From positions 3,684 to 67,683 of the forward strand of contig JAFRVB010000004.1 in assembly GCA_017441845.1 (NCBI GenBank): a stretch of DNA of 64,000 nt, given 5' to 3'. Below the pieces are notes generated by a model that searched no databases, was not told where the DNA came from, and worked only from the letters and a program-made list of their open reading frames with translations. Position 1 is the stretch's first letter. Each line of letters begins with the position of its first letter. The translations under genes and the position numbers were made by a program. The stretch is from Bacilli bacterium (GTDB lineage Bacteria; Bacillota_I; Bacilli_A; RF39; UBA660). Positions 444-46,777 of the stretch are shown piece after piece.

Positions 444-758
444 ATGAAAGAATTAACTAAAAAAGTAGTTGAGTTTACTCGTGAAAGAGATTGGGATCAG
501 TTCCATTCTCCAGAGAACTTAGCAAAAAGTATTTCAATTGAAGCAGGAGAATTATTGGAATGTTTTCAATGGAATAATGAATATGCTTTGGATGAAGTAA
601 AGGAAGAACTAGCTGATGTTATAAACTATTGTATATTAATGGCTGATAAATTAGGTGTTGACCCAGAAGAAATAGTTCTAGAAAAAATGGATAAAACCGC
701 AAAAAAATATCCGGTGGAGAAAGCAAAAGGAAAAAGTTTAAAGTATGACAAATTATAA
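444..758 (+). CDS. MazG-like (all-alpha, DCTPP1/RS21-C6-type) nucleotide pyrophosphohydrolase
   Basis: About 105 aa. RDWDQFHSPENLAKSISIEAGELLECFQW ... EELADVINYCILMADKLGVD ... KYPVEK matches the small MazG-like family, including its EAxELLE / EELAD metal-binding helices. The track starts at GTG 435; ATG 444 lies behind GGTGG. Confidence 0.75.
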   Translation: MKELTKKVVEFTRERDWDQFHSPENLAKSISIEAGELLECFQWNNEYALDEVKEELADVINYCILMADKLGVDPEEIVLEKMDKTAKKYPVEKAKGKSLKYDKL

Positions 759-1242
759 TATTGACAAAGCTAAAAATGTTTTTAATCAAGCAAATGGTTT
801 TCTAAAATTCATTGATGAAAGTGAATTTATTGCACTTAATCCTATGTATCAAAATCCTTTTTATATTAATTGTTTGCTTTGCTGTGAATTATATTTAAAG
901 GCTCTATTAATATTAGATGGTAAAGATGAAAAATATTGTAAAAAAATGGGGCATAAACTATTAGATTTATTTAGTGGTTTAAAAAAAGAAGATCAAAATC
1001 AAATAAAAACAATATTACAAATAGTAATTGATGAAGATATATTTCAGTATTTAGATAGAATAAATGATGATTTTATAGAAATGAGATATGTTTATGTTAA
1101 TGGGGAAAATATTGATGCTAAAGAATTTAATAATAATTATGCCAAAACAATAGGTTTAATGTATAGATTACAAAACTATACTAGTCTTAAATTATATGGT
1201 AGAGATACCTATGAGGAAGTGAAAAATAATGCTGGTATATGA
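745..1242 (+). CDS. HEPN-like all-helical protein
   Basis: CCELYLKALLILDG...GHKLLDLF and a later EMRY segment resemble classical HEPN helices. The assignment is by pattern only, and no clean Rx4-6H motif was seen. The ATG overlaps the upstream stop by 14 nt. Confidence 0.45.
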   Translation: MTNYNIDKAKNVFNQANGFLKFIDESEFIALNPMYQNPFYINCLLCCELYLKALLILDGKDEKYCKKMGHKLLDLFSGLKKEDQNQIKTILQIVIDEDIFQYLDRINDDFIEMRYVYVNGENIDAKEFNNNYAKTIGLMYRLQNYTSLKLYGRDTYEEVKNNAGI

Positions 1243-3103
1243 AGGTATAAAATCTGGTTTTATTGAAGATGTAGACTTAGGAATAATTGCAGATAAGATT
1301 AGAAATAAATACATTGAAGTCATAAAAAAAAGACCAAGTGCACCTGAATTCAATTCATGGAAAAATTCTATGCAATATATGAGGGGTGTACTAAGTGATA
1401 ATGACATACCAAATAATATTGGTATAGCTATCGAATATAATATTCCGCCAACTGGTTGTAGAATAGATTTTATGATGTCTGGATATAAACAATCTAAATC
1501 AAATGTTGTAATTATTGAGTTAAAACAATGGGATAAAGCAACTGAAGTTGGAGAGATGGATGGGATATATAAAGTTAATACATTCACTGGCGGAGGAATG
1601 AGAGACGTTAATCATCCATCATATCAAGCCATGACATATGCCAACTTAATTAGAGATTACAATGAATCAGTTCAATTAGAAGATATTAACGTAGTACCAT
1701 GTGCGTACCTTCATAATTATTATTTTGATAATGATGATACACTATTATCAAATAATTATAAAGAATATGTAGAAGCAGCTCCATTATTTGGACATAATGA
1801 TGTATTAAAACTAAGAGATTTTATTAAAAGATACATAGAAGATGGGGACGAAGGAAATATTCTCTATGAAATAGATCATGGAAGAATAAGACCATCTAAG
1901 ATGTTACAAGATTCGTTATCACAAATGTTAAAAGGTAATAAAGAATTCTACATGATAGATTCTCAAAAAATTGTATATGAATATGCATTAAGATATGCAA
2001 TAGATACAGTTGCTAGTAATTCTAAAAACGTAATGATAGTTAGAGGCGGACCAGGTACAGGGAAATCAGTCTTAGCCATCAATTTACTCGTAGAATTAAA
2101 CAATAGAAATATGACTTGTTTCTATGTTACTAAGAATGCAGCACCTAGAACTGTTTATGCAGCTAAATTAAGAGGAGAATTTACAGCAACTCACATAAAT
2201 CATCTATTTCAAGGATCAGGAGGATTCTATGAAGAAGAAACAAACAAATTAGATTGTTTAGTAGTAGATGAAGCACATAGATTAAATGAAAAATCAGGAT
2301 TATTTCAAAATAGAGGAGAAAACCAAATTAAGGAAATAATAAATGCTGCTAAATTTTCAATATTTTTTATAGATGAAAACCAAAAAGTAACATTAAAAGA
2401 TATTGGCAGCGAAGATTTAATAAGAAAATTTGCTCAAGAACAAGGAGCAGGTATTTATACATATGAATTAGATAGTCAATTTAGATGTAATGGATCAGAT
2501 GGATATGTTGCTTGGCTAGATAATACTTTAGAAATAAGAGATACAGCAAACTTCGATATAGAGGGATTTGATTATGACTTTAAAGTATTTGATGATCCAA
2601 ATGAAATGAGAAGAGAAATAGAGGAAAAGAACAAGATTAATAATAAATCAAGAATAGTTGCTGGATATTGTTGGGAATGGCCTACAGGTAATACCAGAAA
2701 TGATTCTAATTATCATGAAATCAAAATACCTGAAAAGAAGTTTGAAATTAGCTGGAATCTTGAGTCTGGTGAAGCGTTTGCAATAGGTGAGAATTCTATT
2801 AATGAAGCAGGATGTATTCACACAGTTCAGGGTTTAGAGTTTGACTATGTTGGAGTAATAATTGGTGATGATATGAGATATGAAGATGGACATATTGTTA
2901 CTGATTATACAAAAAGGGCACGAAGTGATAACTCACTAAAGGGAATCAATAGAATAACAAATGAACAAGGAGAAGAAGTGGCTAATAAAATAGCTGATAC
3001 TATAATAAAGAACACATATAGAACATTAATGACTAGAGGAATGAAAGGTTGTTATGTTTATTGCACAGATAAAGAATTACAGGAGTATTTAAAGAATAGT
3101 TAG
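1229..3103 (+). CDS. PD-(D/E)xK nuclease-like N-terminal domain fused to a DUF2075 / Schlafen-group-3-like P-loop helicase
   Basis: N-terminus: GCRIDFMMSG ... VVIIELKQW (D ... ExK). Walker A: RGGPGTGKSVLA. Walker B: CLVVDEAHRL. C-terminus: IHTVQGLEFDYVGVIIG and TLMTRGMKG, typical of the DUF2075 / SF1-like C-terminal domain. The start overlaps the upstream gene by 14 nt and follows GAGGAAGTGA. Confidence 0.75.
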   Translation: MLVYEGIKSGFIEDVDLGIIADKIRNKYIEVIKKRPSAPEFNSWKNSMQYMRGVLSDNDIPNNIGIAIEYNIPPTGCRIDFMMSGYKQSKSNVVIIELKQWDKATEVGEMDGIYKVNTFTGGGMRDVNHPSYQAMTYANLIRDYNESVQLEDINVVPCAYLHNYYFDNDDTLLSNNYKEYVEAAPLFGHNDVLKLRDFIKRYIEDGDEGNILYEIDHGRIRPSKMLQDSLSQMLKGNKEFYMIDSQKIVYEYALRYAIDTVASNSKNVMIVRGGPGTGKSVLAINLLVELNNRNMTCFYVTKNAAPRTVYAAKLRGEFTATHINHLFQGSGGFYEEETNKLDCLVVDEAHRLNEKSGLFQNRGENQIKEIINAAKFSIFFIDENQKVTLKDIGSEDLIRKFAQEQGAGIYTYELDSQFRCNGSDGYVAWLDNTLEIRDTANFDIEGFDYDFKVFDDPNEMRREIEEKNKINNKSRIVAGYCWEWPTGNTRNDSNYHEIKIPEKKFEISWNLESGEAFAIGENSINEAGCIHTVQGLEFDYVGVIIGDDMRYEDGHIVTDYTKRARSDNSLKGINRITNEQGEEVANKIADTIIKNTYRTLMTRGMKGCYVYCTDKELQEYLKNS

Positions 3104-3172: not shown

Positions 3173-3559
3173 ATGATTACAGTAGTAGCTGCTTTAATAA
3201 AAAAAGATAATAAATATTTAATAGCAAGACGTTCTACCGGAGATCCTAATGTATATGGTAAATGGGAGTTTCCAGGAGGGAAAGTAAAAGAAAGTGAATC
3301 AGAAGAACACGCTATTGAAAGAGAAATAAAAGAAGAATTTGAAATGGATATTAAAGCTAAAAAATTTTTGATTAATAGTATCTGTGAGTATCCAACTAAA
3401 ATAATAGATTTGAAATTATATGAATGTGAATATATTTCTGGAGAATTCAATCTTCATGATCATTCAGAATACCAGTTTTTAAATAAAGAGGATATATTAA
3501 AATTAGATTTATGTCCTGCAGATATTCCGTTAGCAAAATATATAAAGGAGAACTTATAA
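3173..3559 (+). CDS. Nudix hydrolase, MutT/NudG-like (deoxy)nucleoside triphosphate pyrophosphohydrolase
   Basis: The Nudix box GGKVKESESEEHAIEREIKEEFEM is near-canonical (GX5EX7REUXEEXGU). The N-terminus VVAALIKKDNKYLIARR..G.WEFPGG is typical of MutT-type enzymes. Confidence 0.85.
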   Translation: MITVVAALIKKDNKYLIARRSTGDPNVYGKWEFPGGKVKESESEEHAIEREIKEEFEMDIKAKKFLINSICEYPTKIIDLKLYECEYISGEFNLHDHSEYQFLNKEDILKLDLCPADIPLAKYIKENL

Positions 3560-3560
3560 T

Positions 3561-6302
3561 ATGAAAAACAAATTTTTATCTAATAAAAACAGCGAGTTTT
3601 TAAATAAAATAAAGGATAATCTTAAAGCATGTAATTCGTTTTATTTTACTGTTAGTTTCATTAAAAAGGCTGGGTTGATATTATTAGAAAGAGAAATAGA
3701 AGAAGCGTTAGAAAGAGGCGCTGTCGGTAAAATAATAACATCAACATATCAAAATTTTACTGATATAAGCTCATTAGAACAATTCTATAATTGGCAAAAA
3801 GAGTTTGATAATTTTGAATGTCACCTAGATTATGAATGTTTTGGTGAAAGTGGATATCATTCTAAGGGATATATGTTTGAATATAATGATTCATTTGAAT
3901 TTGTAGTAGGGTCATCAAATATAACAAGATTTGCACTAACAAAAAACATAGAATGGAATGTTTCTTTAATAGCTAAAGATGATTTTGATTCTTACAAAGA
4001 AGGTTTAAAAGAATTTAATATTTTATGGAATAAAACATTAGAATTAGATTATAAATTAATCGAAAAATATAAACTACAATTAGATTATGCTATTGAAAAA
4101 TGGGATATGGATTATATAAATGCAACTGATACAACTATTAACCCTAATTCTATGCAAAGAAAAGCATTGAGGGAATTAAGAAGATATAGAGATACTGGAG
4201 TGAAGAAAGCATTAATAATTAGTGCAACAGGATCTGGAAAAACATACTTGGCCGCTTTTGATGCTCGTAACTTTGGGGCAAAAAGATTGTTATATATTGT
4301 TCACAGAGAATCAATTCTAAAAGATGCTAGAGATTCGTTTATAAAAATATTTGGAGCTGAAAGAACATATGGCTTTTTCACTGGTAATGAATCAAATCAA
4401 GAGTGTGATTTTATATTTGCAACCAGTAATATGTTAGGGAGACACTTAGATGAATTTGATAGAAATGAATTTGAGTATATTATTTATGATGAAGTGCATC
4501 ACGTGGTAGCTGATACTGGTAAAAAGATTTTTGAATATTTTAAACCAGAATTTATGCTAGGCTTAACGGCTACTCCTGAAAGAATGGATAATCAAAATGT
4601 ATTTGAATTTTTTGACCAAAATGTACCATTTGAATTAAGACTTAGAGACGCGATTAATAATGATTTAGTAGTACCATTTCATTATTATGGTATTAGAGAT
4701 GAATTGGTTGATTATAGTTCTAAAGATAGAATGGTAATAGCGAAAGCAATTGCAGCACAAGATAATATAGAGTTTATTAAAGAACAAATAGAGAAACACA
4801 AAAAAGTAGGAGAAAAATTAAAATGTATTGCTTTCTGTACTAACATACAACATTGTAAGTTAATGGCTGAAGAACTTTATGAAGAAGGGTATAATACAAT
4901 ATCTTTAACAGGTATAAACGATACTGGTGTTAGAATAAAAGCATTTAAAGATTTGCAAGATGATAATAATCCTTTAGAAATAATTTGTACTGTAGATATA
5001 TTAAATGAAGGAGTAGATATACCACAAATAAATATGGTATTATTCCTACGACCAACCGAATCACAAACAGTATTTATCCAACAATTAGGACGCGGTTTAA
5101 GAAAGTACCCAGGAAAAGAATATGTAACAGTACTAGATTTTATTGGAAATAATTATGATAGAGCAGTTCAAATTGCAATGGCGTTAGGAACTTTAAGTAA
5201 TACAACATATATAGAAAAAGCATATTTAAAAGACATGATTAGTACTAATTTTAAGTCTTTAGATATACCTAATGTGTTGATAGATATTGACGATTTATCA
5301 AAAGAAGAAATAATCGAATATATTGATAAAACGAATTTTAATTCTAAAGCATTTTTAGAAAAAGATTATACTAATTTTAAGAATTATATTAATAATGGAT
5401 CATATCCAAGTCACATGGATTTCTTAAATTCAGATGTCGCCCCCGATCTAATTAGAATTATAAAAACTTCATTTAGTGGATCTAAGAATATGTCATATTA
5501 TAATTTTTTAAAAAAGATCAATGAAGAAACAATTCCAATATTCAATGAGATTGAAATAAAAATAATAAACATAGTTGAAGATTTATTACCTATTGCTAGA
5601 TTAGATGAATACCTAATTATAGAACAAGCAATAAAAGAAGGTATTATAGATTTAAAAAGATTAGAAGGACGTAATGCGCACATTACAGAGAAAACCCTTG
5701 AAAATGCATATAATAATCTAGTTAAATTGGGAGTTTTAGAAAACAATAAATTTGATTTGCTAAGAATGAATAATGATGAATTGAAAGATTATTTAATAGA
5801 TACATTGAATTATGGAATAATTAGATATAATAGAGAATTTGGTGAATATGAAGGATTGTTTAAACTATACCGAAATTACTATAAAGAACAAGCATCAAGA
5901 ATTATGCTAAAAAATGGTTTGTTGCAAAAAGGAACTTACTATGAAGATGATGTGGCATACATCTTCGCTGGAATAAAAAAAGATGAAGATGGAAAATTAA
6001 ATTATAAAGATAAATTTTTGAATAGCAAAGTATTCCAATGGGAAAGTATTGCTGATGTATCTGAAAATGAAAAAAGGAATCTAAGAAACGCTAAGAAAGT
6101 TCATTTGTTTATTAGAAAAATGGAATCAGAAGATACAGTTACTTTACCTTATACTTATTTCGGATTAGGGAGCTTTACCAACGAAAGACCATGGTATACA
6201 GAAGAAGATGGAGTAAAACACCCTACATTATTATTTGATATTATCTTGGACAATGAAGTGCCTAAAGAATATTTTGTTGATTTTGAAATATCAAATAATT
6301 AA
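3561..6302 (+). CDS. PLD-nuclease / SF2 helicase / DUF3427 fusion protein with SauUSI-like type IV (modification-dependent) restriction endonuclease architecture
   Basis: N-terminal HKD motif: YHSKGYMFE...VVGSSNIT. Helicase motifs: SATGSGKT (I), IYDEVHH (II), LTATPER (III), QQLGRGLR (VI). The C-terminal region, with FQWES... and KVHLFIRK...PYTYFGLG, is typical of DUF3427. The start is 2 nt after the Nudix stop. Confidence 0.75.
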   Translation: MKNKFLSNKNSEFLNKIKDNLKACNSFYFTVSFIKKAGLILLEREIEEALERGAVGKIITSTYQNFTDISSLEQFYNWQKEFDNFECHLDYECFGESGYHSKGYMFEYNDSFEFVVGSSNITRFALTKNIEWNVSLIAKDDFDSYKEGLKEFNILWNKTLELDYKLIEKYKLQLDYAIEKWDMDYINATDTTINPNSMQRKALRELRRYRDTGVKKALIISATGSGKTYLAAFDARNFGAKRLLYIVHRESILKDARDSFIKIFGAERTYGFFTGNESNQECDFIFATSNMLGRHLDEFDRNEFEYIIYDEVHHVVADTGKKIFEYFKPEFMLGLTATPERMDNQNVFEFFDQNVPFELRLRDAINNDLVVPFHYYGIRDELVDYSSKDRMVIAKAIAAQDNIEFIKEQIEKHKKVGEKLKCIAFCTNIQHCKLMAEELYEEGYNTISLTGINDTGVRIKAFKDLQDDNNPLEIICTVDILNEGVDIPQINMVLFLRPTESQTVFIQQLGRGLRKYPGKEYVTVLDFIGNNYDRAVQIAMALGTLSNTTYIEKAYLKDMISTNFKSLDIPNVLIDIDDLSKEEIIEYIDKTNFNSKAFLEKDYTNFKNYINNGSYPSHMDFLNSDVAPDLIRIIKTSFSGSKNMSYYNFLKKINEETIPIFNEIEIKIINIVEDLLPIARLDEYLIIEQAIKEGIIDLKRLEGRNAHITEKTLENAYNNLVKLGVLENNKFDLLRMNNDELKDYLIDTLNYGIIRYNREFGEYEGLFKLYRNYYKEQASRIMLKNGLLQKGTYYEDDVAYIFAGIKKDEDGKLNYKDKFLNSKVFQWESIADVSENEKRNLRNAKKVHLFIRKMESEDTVTLPYTYFGLGSFTNERPWYTEEDGVKHPTLLFDIILDNEVPKEYFVDFEISNN

Positions 6303-6392
6303 ATTGTTAACAAAAATTGCGAAAGTTCCAATTAAAATTGGTAGAGAATATATTTCAAATAGTATATGATTTATTTGAAAGAAGGGATAATT

Positions 6393-6983
6393 ATGGAAAT
6401 TGGAAAAAAGATAATGGAATTGAGAAAGAAAAATGGTTTTTCTCAAGAAGAGTTAGCTGATAAAGTAGGAGTAACTAGACAAACTATTTCTAAATGGGAA
6501 TTAGGTGAAACTTCACCTGATTTAAAACAAGCTAAAGAGTTATCTAAAATATTTAAAGTAAGTTTAGATGAATTAGTTGATAATGATATAGAAAATATAT
6601 TAATAGAGAAAACATCTAATACTGAAAAATTAGCTGGATTAATATTAAAATTACTTAGATTCTTAATAGTATTTATTATTGTATTACCTATATTAGTAAT
6701 TATATTAAATATTGTAGTCAAAAATTATAGAGAGAATAATTCTGGTAGATTAGTTAATACTTCTATACAATGTACATTACATGATAAAGAATATTCTTAT
6801 GAATTTGAGTATTTTGAAGAAACTGGTCAAATTAAAGCAGCTGGTGGAGATGAATATCTAGCTAATATTACTAATGTTGATAATGAAAGTGATGCTTATG
6901 TAGCATTAGATAAGATAACTGCTTATGTAGAGAATAATAATGGTACCTGTAAAAGAAGTGAACCTAAAGAAGTAAAAGATTAA
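6393..6983 (+). CDS. XRE-family HTH transcriptional regulator with a transmembrane segment and an extracytoplasmic C-terminal domain
   Basis: LRKKNGFSQEELADKVGVTRQTISKWELGETSP is a Cro/C1-type HTH, followed by the hydrophobic helix LLRFLIVFIIVLPILVIILNIVV. The start is chosen at the MEIGKK Met behind GAAGGGA; the track starts at 6366. Confidence 0.8.
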   Translation: MEIGKKIMELRKKNGFSQEELADKVGVTRQTISKWELGETSPDLKQAKELSKIFKVSLDELVDNDIENILIEKTSNTEKLAGLILKLLRFLIVFIIVLPILVIILNIVVKNYRENNSGRLVNTSIQCTLHDKEYSYEFEYFEETGQIKAAGGDEYLANITNVDNESDAYVALDKITAYVENNNGTCKRSEPKEVKD

Positions 6984-12356: not shown

Positions 12357-12437
12357 AATATCTCCTTAGTGATTGATTATTATAACACAGATGTATAAAA
12401 AATGATATAATATTAATAGAGTAGAAGAGGTATATAT

Positions 12438-15252: not shown

Positions 15253-15301
15253 AAATAGTTCTTTTTTAGTTATAAAGTGTTATAATAAAGTCGGTGATAA
15301 T

Positions 15302-28706: not shown

Positions 28707-28718
28707 TACTCTTTTTTT
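28696..28718 (+). terminator. Rho-independent terminator
   Basis: gagtac-tata-gtactc hairpin followed by T7. It overlaps the stop codon. Confidence 0.7.
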
Positions 28719-28749
28719 GATATAATATAGACAGAAAGGAAGGAATATT

Positions 28750-33044: not shown

Positions 33045-33070
33045 AATGTTATAATAAAGTAGGTGATACT

Positions 33071-36669: not shown

Positions 36670-36711
36670 ATTTTATCTTATTATTGATATAATATACGTA
36701 GTGGTGATAAT

Positions 36712-40664: not shown

Positions 40665-40751
40665 TAATCATCATACTCCTTTCGAATTTATTATATCATT
40701 ATTTTACAAATTTGAATAGAAAATATGTTATAATACACACGAGGCGATAGT

Positions 40752-46768: not shown

Positions 46769-46777
46769 TGATATAAT
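46769..46777 (+). promoter_or_regulatory. Extended -10 promoter element (TGaTATAAT)
   Basis: tgatataat lies 30 nt upstream of the ATG at 46807. The 17-nt string atttttatgatataatt is identical to the one at 411-427. Confidence 0.4.

Follow-up and report, generated by a model that had tools for sequence, protein, structure and literature searches.

Which part of a three-gene cluster near the start of a 64,000-nucleotide (nt) stretch of Bacilli DNA is the conserved unit, and what might that unit do? The stretch (the window) comprises positions 3,684 to 67,683 of the forward strand of contig JAFRVB010000004.1 (GenBank assembly GCA_017441845.1; Bacillota_I, Bacilli_A, RF39, UBA660), and the cluster occupies window positions 444-3103. 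A first-pass annotation, made from the letters alone, had presented its three genes, for a MazG-like pyrophosphohydrolase, a HEPN-like protein and a nuclease-helicase, as a candidate undescribed defence module. Comparison with related loci gave another unit: what is conserved is the pair of MazG-like and nuclease-helicase genes, not the triad, and attention is better directed to a MazG-like plus Nhi-like nuclease-helicase unit whose middle gene can be exchanged than to a triad taken as fixed. As to function, we lean with modest confidence towards an anti-phage operon in which a sanitiser of modified dCTP and a methylation-dependent nuclease-helicase would form the core and the HEPN gene would be an embedded second-line gene. 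The features of the cluster are as follows.

444-758, + strand: gene 1, 104-amino-acid (aa) MazG-like / DCTPP1-like all-alpha nucleoside triphosphate (NTP) pyrophosphohydrolase (PF12643, 1.2e-21).
745-1242, + strand: gene 2, 165-aa HEPN-T (PF05168) protein, occupant of a variable slot (Pfam, 9.9e-06).
1229-3103, + strand: gene 3, 624-aa Nhi-like nuclease-helicase (PF09848, 1.5e-104).
1229-1993, + strand: predicted PD-(D/E)xK domain of gene 3, approximately residues 1-255, assigned by motifs.
2024-3070, + strand: DUF2075/SLFN-g3 superfamily 1 (SF1) helicase domain of gene 3, residues 266-614, with the entire PF09848 profile covered.
418-426, + strand: candidate extended -10 element TGATATAAT, 18 nt 5' of the gene 1 start codon.

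The physical description given by the first-pass annotation was borne out. The coordinates of the open reading frames (ORFs) agree with three same-strand genes joined by identical 14-nt overlaps, genes 1 and 2 sharing 745-758 and genes 2 and 3 sharing 1229-1242; TGATATAAT is a perfect TGnTATAAT; and the quoted motifs EAGELLE, EELAD, RIDF...IELKQW, GGPGTGKS, VVDEAH and VQGLEFDYVGV were all found in the translations.

The conserved unit was defined by a census of 80 genome and 80 metagenome loci carrying gene 3 relatives of 53-88% identity, the ORFs of which were searched with the window proteins. Helicase genes were called stand-alone where at least 500 nt was present on both flanks, and 141 of the 160 loci were scorable.

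MazG-like gene directly upstream of the helicase gene: 37 loci.
MazG-like gene upstream, one or two genes between: 43 loci.
MazG-like gene upstream, ORF-less gap between: 3 loci.
MazG-like gene directly downstream of the helicase gene: 31 loci.
Stand-alone helicase gene: 27 loci.
Flank too short for scoring: 17 loci.
No usable gene 3 ORF: 2 loci.

A MazG-like gene adjoined the helicase gene in 114 of the scorable loci (83 upstream, 31 downstream). Clustering of the helicase proteins returned three groups, namely a clade with MazG upstream (73 of 85), a clade with MazG downstream (28 of 39) and a mostly stand-alone clade, and that the two genes stay adjacent whichever comes first points to a functional link. 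The window-type HEPN gene was found in none of the 160 census loci. With the pair held in either order and the HEPN gene rare and placed in a variable slot, the three-gene set did not survive as the conserved unit. Hosts in the census included Bacilli, Clostridia, Saccharibacteria, Actinomycetota, Methanobrevibacter and a nanoarchaeon, a spread that indicates horizontal transfer. The pair was also present on a haloarchaeal (Halalkalicoccus) megaplasmid, with 'nucleotide pyrophosphohydrolase' as the annotation of the partner. The phage GenBank collection yielded one 51% identical gene 3 match, in the record of Microcystis phage Mwe-JY31, and a scan of viral_contigs with gene 3 gave zero confirmed relatives. 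Within that 22-kb record (L174) a MazG-like and a DUF2075 gene, both annotated hypothetical, lie at 4657-6863; the record may hold a phage-borne module or be a mobile element deposited as phage. Two tandem DUF2075 genes were seen in a restriction island on a Hymenobacter canadensis plasmid (L173, 5001-8987), where their neighbours are a BPTD_3080-family endonuclease, a methyltransferase and a DUF4747 gene and no MazG-like gene is present.

Where MazG lies upstream, the junction between the two genes was hypervariable, even with flanking genes 80-90% identical. It was empty in 37 loci, and at least 25 unrelated insert families were counted in it, the window HEPN included, with four Pfam HEPN families among them (one being the window's own). 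Inserts lay on the same strand as their flanks, with a spacer of at most 15 nt or an overlap at nearly every junction, the sole exception being 112 nt in L030. The slot is enriched in HEPN and other defence genes, of which the following were assigned.

HEPN_AbiU2: five loci.
Zinc-ribbon plus DUF4145: four loci.
Hypoth_Ymh.
HNH.
Predicted membrane protein: five loci.
Proteins with RNxxxH-type motifs: L009 (a match to PADLOC PDC-S64) and L117.
PtuA-like ABC ATPase followed by C-terminal RNxxxH motifs (PrrC-like layout): L113 2624-3997.
Full-length UG13b defence reverse transcriptase: L109 2692-4014 (RT_UG13b, 2.6e-113).
Mrr_cat endonuclease and AIPR protein: L092 2403-3989 and L102 2307-4007, in that order.
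Whole pair of type IV restriction endonuclease (REase) and NUDIX genes: L067 and L115.

AbiU2 is reportedly linked with restriction-modification (R-M) systems. Passages of Anantharaman et al. 2013 (PMC3710099) place DUF4145, Ymh and HEPN-T genes in operons or clusters with R-M systems, and present HEPN genes inside R-M operons as a supposed second line of defence with PrrC as paradigm. Further inserts had no Pfam or PADLOC match (L007 7093-7989, L018 7137-7991, L011 7205-7999, L025 3130-3726, L026 5251-6045, L124 3522-4001 and L008 7793-8014) and encode proteins of approximately 290 aa, 264 aa (transmembrane), 198 aa, 264 aa, 159 aa and 74 aa; their place in the slot makes them candidates for new genes of defence or regulation.

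These arrangements could also be those of an integrated three-component system, the reading of the first-pass annotation, with the nuclease-helicase as sensor, a HEPN RNase as effector, the MazG enzyme adjusting nucleotide pools, and the middle gene an exchangeable subunit as in CBASS, Thoeris and retrons. The tight spacing on both sides of inserts, implying translational coupling, is what such a system would display; the gene 2 family was found in the slot only, joined to helicase lineages 55-68% identical to the window's, and the inserts as a set (HEPN, HNH, Mrr, membrane protein) recall the effectors of modular systems. We nevertheless consider it unlikely, as no middle gene is present in 37 MazG-upstream and 31 MazG-downstream loci, some inserts are defence genes in their own right or complete pairs (RT_UG13b; type IV REase plus NUDIX), and in a distant Nhi-like relative one gene suffices for defence.

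In the anti-phage operon that we favour, gene 2 would be second-line cargo of this slot. Its product scored 26.1 bits against Pfam HEPN (PF05168, cut-off 22, E 9.9e-06), and the same match on its homologues was graded weak or faint in precomputed annotation. An AlphaFold2 (AF2) model with a mean predicted local distance difference test score (pLDDT) of 82 consisted of helices throughout. Its best Foldseek hit was the archaeal HEPN protein 1WOL (probability 0.96, E 0.73, template modelling (TM) score 0.67 on the target), and the same list held the HEPN entries 4NQF, 2HSB, 3O10 (sacsin) and 8YUF, HEPN toxins and AbiV, every E-value being at least 0.7 and none significant; a profile search of the PDB with gene 2 returned nothing meaningful. 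The first-pass annotation had called the protein HEPN-like and a possible RNase. The family assignment stood, PF05168 being above cut-off; the Rx4-6H pair was sought and is absent throughout the protein, R114 being followed by YVYVN. In the family alignment H70, R114, Y115, R141 and R153 were invariant. Passages of PMC3710099 describe an HEPN-T/AF0298 and AbiV variant in which the Arg remains but the His does not, a conserved His further upstream being a possible alternative active site (Anantharaman et al. 2013). Invariant R114 with invariant upstream H70 matches that variant, and RNase activity of gene 2 is possible but uncertain.

Homologues of gene 2 were detected in just nine clusters. 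In support of the first-pass reading, the triad did recur outside the source genome: in all seven gene 2 homologue contigs examined (L001-L006), MazG was followed by gene 2 and then by a 14-nt-overlapping ORF, which was the helicase gene by phmmer wherever enough sequence was on the contig (L002 holds 35 codons only). Both 14-nt overlaps were kept in all gene-2-bearing loci, at HEPN identities of 54-80%. Where most or all of the helicase was present it was 55-68% identical to the window's, so that cargo and flanks differ in history. In contrast to this overall figure in L001, L004 and L005, the first 35-80 helicase residues were approximately 91% identical to the window's in L002 (9935-10039) and L003 (3870-4109), hinting at recombination breakpoints within the 5' end of gene 3.

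Gene 1 matched PF12643 (MazG-like) with 77.1 bits (cut-off 27, 1.2e-21) and mouse and human DCTPP1 in the PDB at 6.5e-18 over approximately 100 residues, the alignment pairing its EAGELLE and EELAD with the metal-binding EVGELAE and EELSD of DCTPP1. The metal ligands E33, E36, E55 and D58 were invariant in 113 of 113 helicase-linked homologues, across which W17, W43 and Y62 were conserved in at least 96%. These ligands pair with E63, E66, E95 and D98 in mouse DCTPP1 numbering. The earlier call of a MazG/DCTPP1-type pyrophosphohydrolase agrees with these matches, and by its residues the family is one of active, catalytically intact enzymes under constraint. Relatives of gene 1, as of gene 3, number thousands, many of them 85-92% identical. 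Among relatives of gene 1, MazG-like domains of close similarity (P0320, P0364, P0288) were fused to an SNF2/DEAD helicase fragment, to a beta-lactamase-fold domain and to a response-regulator receiver.

Strict conservation of these catalytic residues would also suit abortive infection by nucleotide depletion, in which the helicase-nuclease would sense invasion and the MazG enzyme would kill by draining dCTP or deoxynucleoside triphosphates (dNTPs), like dCTP deaminase, dGTPase and PUA-Cal-HAD. There is precedent in MazG-like domains that replace the dNTP-depleting Calcineurin-CE effector of rare PUA-HAD systems, and a 2026 study lists MazG among predicted, unvalidated defence domains. We give this scheme little credence, less than the three-component system. 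The product of gene 1 is a catalytic domain by itself (104 aa), to which no regulatory module is attached; the nuclease site of gene 3 is fully conserved, so that an effector is already present; and a NUDIX enzyme that likewise partners an ordinary type IV nuclease, as described below, fits sanitising better than killing.

The nuclease-helicase of the favoured operon was then compared with known proteins. Gene 3 matched SLFN-g3_helicase (PF09848, formerly DUF2075) at 1.5e-104, with Walker A GGPGTGKS and Walker B VVDEAH, and no Pfam match was found over its first approximately 255 residues. In that region E69, D80, E97-x-K99 and Q133xxxY137 were invariant in 18 diverse homologues 45-87% identical to the window protein, which is a PD-(D/E)xK / RecB-like nuclease signature, so that both halves of the nuclease plus DUF2075/SF1 helicase call were upheld. 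The AF2 model of the nuclease domain reached a pLDDT of 38 (aligned sequences 84-93% identical) and was not used for fold search; since this model failed, the fold is read from motifs. PDB sequence and profile searches with gene 3 and its N-terminal profile gave nothing meaningful. BLASTP against the verified Nhi-like protein of Bacillus cereus, most of which was recovered from the supplement of Millman et al. 2022, returned E 2e-06 at 21% identity over 324 collinear columns, and hhalign of the nuclease domain against it gave a probability of 71% (E 3.7e-05). The nuclease residues of gene 3 pair with E/D/ECK/Q of that protein, and Walker A and B are also aligned. The homology is weak but consistent, and these comparisons place gene 3 among the Nhi-like proteins as a new and distant member. 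The PADLOC Nhi model covered gene 3 residues 261-421 only (1.1e-15; profile positions 194-331 of 470), which is short of a full-length match. The Nhi-like homologue list of Millman et al. was checked for the window family: Anaerobium acetethylicum is present (on a differently numbered contig) and Sporosarcina and Fictibacillus are absent.

Gene structure, domain content, active-site conservation, the pairing counts and the variability of the slot are shown by the data; the steps that we infer (defence function, modification dependence, MazG substrate, and latency or guarding of the HEPN protein) would run as follows. The operon would lie on or beside an integrative mobilizable element and have a two-gene core. 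The nuclease of gene 3, driven by its DUF2075 SF1 helicase, would attack invading DNA, and would probably target DNA with modified (methylated) cytosine, that is, act in modification-dependent restriction, by analogy with the Bacillus Nhi-like protein. In SPbeta escapers of the latter, the cytosine methylase gene mtbP has undergone loss-of-function mutation; methylation of its DNA therefore sensitises the phage to Nhi-like. Gene 1 would hydrolyse 5-modified dCTP (5-methyl- or 5-hydroxymethyl-dCTP), so that bases from degraded modified DNA would be kept out of the host chromosome and the host spared its own nuclease; phages building modified DNA would be starved of precursor. Gene 2 would most likely be a second-line, abortive-infection-type effector co-expressed with the core and possibly restrained by it, in analogy to PrrC in the EcoprrI R-M locus.

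Several points weigh against this scheme. The evidence on proteins of this clade is computational. The substrate of gene 1 is taken solely from homology to a eukaryotic enzyme, and mouse DCTPP1 His38 pairs with Val8 of gene 1. At 21% identity to the verified Nhi-like protein the target specificity of gene 3 may differ, and a C5-methylase gene approximately 6 kb upstream in the related locus L002 is awkward for blanket targeting of 5-methylcytosine. The verified protein defends alone, so MazG is not generally required; 27 stand-alone relatives occur without MazG; and a MazG-DUF2075 fusion was not found in either the top 120 or the top 150 MazG representatives. Gene 2 is without the canonical HEPN catalytic residues, and its detectable homologues are confined to the slot, yet paired with helicases that have diverged as described above; slot confinement could instead mark the family as a dedicated subunit.

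Downstream of the cluster lie two facultative neighbours.

3173-3559, + strand: NUDIX hydrolase, 128 aa (Pfam NUDIX; PADLOC candidate PDC-S07, 9.4e-42).
3561-6302, + strand: PLD-like / superfamily 2 (SF2) helicase / DUF3427 type IV (modification-dependent) restriction enzyme, 913 aa (mREase_IV, 1.2e-118).

The best NCBIfam match of the NUDIX protein was NF007834 (NudG-type pyrimidine (d)NTP diphosphatase; 2.2e-26, 92 bits, below the cut-off of 156). The type IV enzyme matched Pfam ResIII and Helicase_C, with PLDc_2 just under cut-off. The first-pass annotation had put a type IV restriction-like gene directly next to gene 3; the identity was right (mREase_IV, DUF3427), but the NUDIX gene lies between the two. 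A NUDIX and/or type IV gene was found beside the module in approximately 23 other loci (upstream, downstream or in the slot), and in L001 and L009 the NUDIX start overlaps the gene 3 stop by 4 nt. NUDIX and type IV genes stay adjacent in either order (window 3173-6302, L009, L015, L060, L067, L078, L115, L126, L151). They look like a two-gene module of their own, parallel to MazG plus nuclease-helicase, and this adjoining pair of the same shape makes the sanitiser idea more attractive. A wider claim may be put tentatively, as a possibility we would not yet back: that of a widely transferred, hitherto undescribed defence architecture in which a DCTPP1-like MazG, as sanitiser of modified dNTPs, would give a modification-dependent Nhi-like nuclease-helicase self-immunity and would starve phages of precursor, the junction would be a hypervariable cassette site for second-line effectors, mostly HEPN RNases, and the NUDIX plus type IV pair would repeat the logic. 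Taken together, these would suggest a general principle by which type IV-like restriction escapes autoimmunity caused by salvaged modified nucleotides. An XRE-type helix-turn-helix (HTH) protein with a transmembrane segment is encoded directly after the type IV gene (window 6366-6983) and has an equivalent in all island copies (L087-L090).

Upstream of the module in the same genome (L087) are genes for an excisionase-type HTH (HTH_17) protein, a tyrosine integrase, a Mob_Pre relaxase and a tetratricopeptide repeat (TPR) protein. The L087 segment 1-9153 also holds HTH, MarR and DUF4379 zinc-ribbon proteins and two acetyltransferases; the tail of the upstream TPR protein (398 aa) is the window ORF at 139-381. 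Together these upstream genes and the defence genes look like an integrative mobilizable element carrying defence, and the earlier call of a defence-island setting is upheld by the type IV REase and NUDIX downstream and the integrase, excisionase-type HTH and Mob_Pre upstream. This mobile context is one of four points that make a housekeeping operon for DNA repair or nucleotide sanitation, near restriction genes by chance, very improbable to us. DCTPP1 and MazG proteins are classical house-cleaning enzymes, and SF1 helicase-nucleases do work in repair (DNA2 is cited in the discussion of Bari et al. 2022); yet the spread is patchy, with 54-60% identical proteins in Bacillota, Saccharibacteria, Actinomycetota and methanogens as well as on a haloarchaeal plasmid and in a phage record, the operon has known defence genes within it, and gene 3 is homologous to a defence protein that has been verified.

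Expression of the cluster was considered from its layout. In the ORF list gene 1 could start at 435 or 444, and the form from the ATG at 444 (104 aa) has the length of nearly all homologues. A plausible ribosome-binding site lies 8-13 nt 5' of each of the three start codons. The 5' codons of gene 3 (ATG CTG GTA TAT GAA) hold an out-of-frame TGA, and the overlap at the junction of genes 2 and 3 arises in part because these conserved N-terminal codons supply that stop; the same 14-nt overlap at the gene 3 start was seen with unrelated inserts (L008, L034, L109). TGnTATAAT occurs 16 times in the window against 12.3 expected, which is not above chance. Of 10 copies on the + strand, eight precede a long-ORF start by 16-30 nt, which makes a short-leader promoter before gene 1 credible, and TGATATAAT is plausible as such a promoter of the operon. 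Other perfect + strand copies 16-30 nt before long ORFs are at 12403-12411, 15278-15286, 28718-28726, 33047-33055, 36685-36693, 40726-40734 and 46769-46777, which suggests frequent use by the host of extended -10 promoters whose leaders are very short. A generic promoter and terminator scan was uninformative, as DNA of 25% GC defeats discrimination. There were zero Rfam matches within the window, and no clear anomaly of base composition was found over the module.

With this pairing, MazG-type enzymes gain a concrete partner and a testable role in defence. If the MazG enzyme does clean modified dCTP, this would explain how modification-dependent nucleases spare hosts that take up salvaged modified bases, and would tie the role proposed for DCTPP1 in animals to immunity in bacteria. 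Two highly conserved genes around at least 25 alternative inserts amount to a natural experiment in second-line effector swapping, and the slot, several of whose inserts have no recognised domain, is a cheap route to new defence genes. The helicase domain of gene 3 is that of the animal Schlafen restriction factors, a further link to animal immunity.

Whether the module is undescribed was judged from PADLOC-DB v2.0.0 and the literature. Genes 1 and 2 had no match to its hidden Markov models at E up to 0.1, and gene 3 had partial helicase-core matches only (AbiO, Nhi, PDC-S41). In the open literature, subscription literature being outside the scope, no link of MazG to DUF2075, Nhi, Schlafen-type helicases or HEPN was found. 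The description as an undescribed module stood in that the gene set matches no named system in PADLOC-DB, and did not stand for gene 3, which has the architecture and homology of Nhi and Nhi-like.

Among known systems the Nhi-like protein (Millman et al. 2022; Bacillus cereus FSL H8-0482, system SG141) is a single polypeptide with N-terminal PD-(D/E)xK and DUF2075 SF1 helicase domains, collinear with gene 3; unlike the window clade, which is nearly always coupled to MazG and has a cargo slot, it defends alone as a cloned single gene. Nhi (Bari et al. 2022; Staphylococcus epidermidis SERP2475) likewise confers immunity through PD-(D/E)xK and DUF2075 helicase domains, but its PADLOC model matched gene 3 in part, and Bari et al. 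do not mention DUF2075 with any MazG partner. With DCTPP1 / RS21-C6, the mammalian all-alpha dCTP pyrophosphatase, gene 1 has the metal-binding acids and the W17, W43 and Y62 equivalents in common; it differs in being prokaryotic, in its operon coupling to a nuclease-helicase and in Val8 at the position of mouse His38. Nucleotide-depletion defences (dCTP deaminase, dGTPase, PUA-Cal-HAD and its rare MazG variants) also set an NTP-hydrolysing enzyme in an anti-phage context, but there is no homology and no PUA or HAD partner here, the MazG protein being coupled to a nuclease-helicase. PrrC in the EcoprrI type Ic R-M locus, with the HEPN genes of R-M operons (Anantharaman et al. 2013), resembles the window in that a HEPN gene is nested in a restriction operon; here, however, the host operon is MazG plus nuclease-helicase without a methyltransferase and not type I R-M, gene 2 is without an ATPase domain and without Rx4-6H, and masking or activation would hold by analogy only. 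DUF3427 modification-dependent REases have been noted adjoining genes for DUF2075 NTPases (Lutz et al. 2019), the same adjacency as here and in approximately 20 related loci, whereas MazG and NUDIX are not mentioned there and the DUF2075 protein here bears its own nuclease. What appears to be new is the obligate-looking MazG partner and the cassette slot, as variations on the Nhi-like kind.

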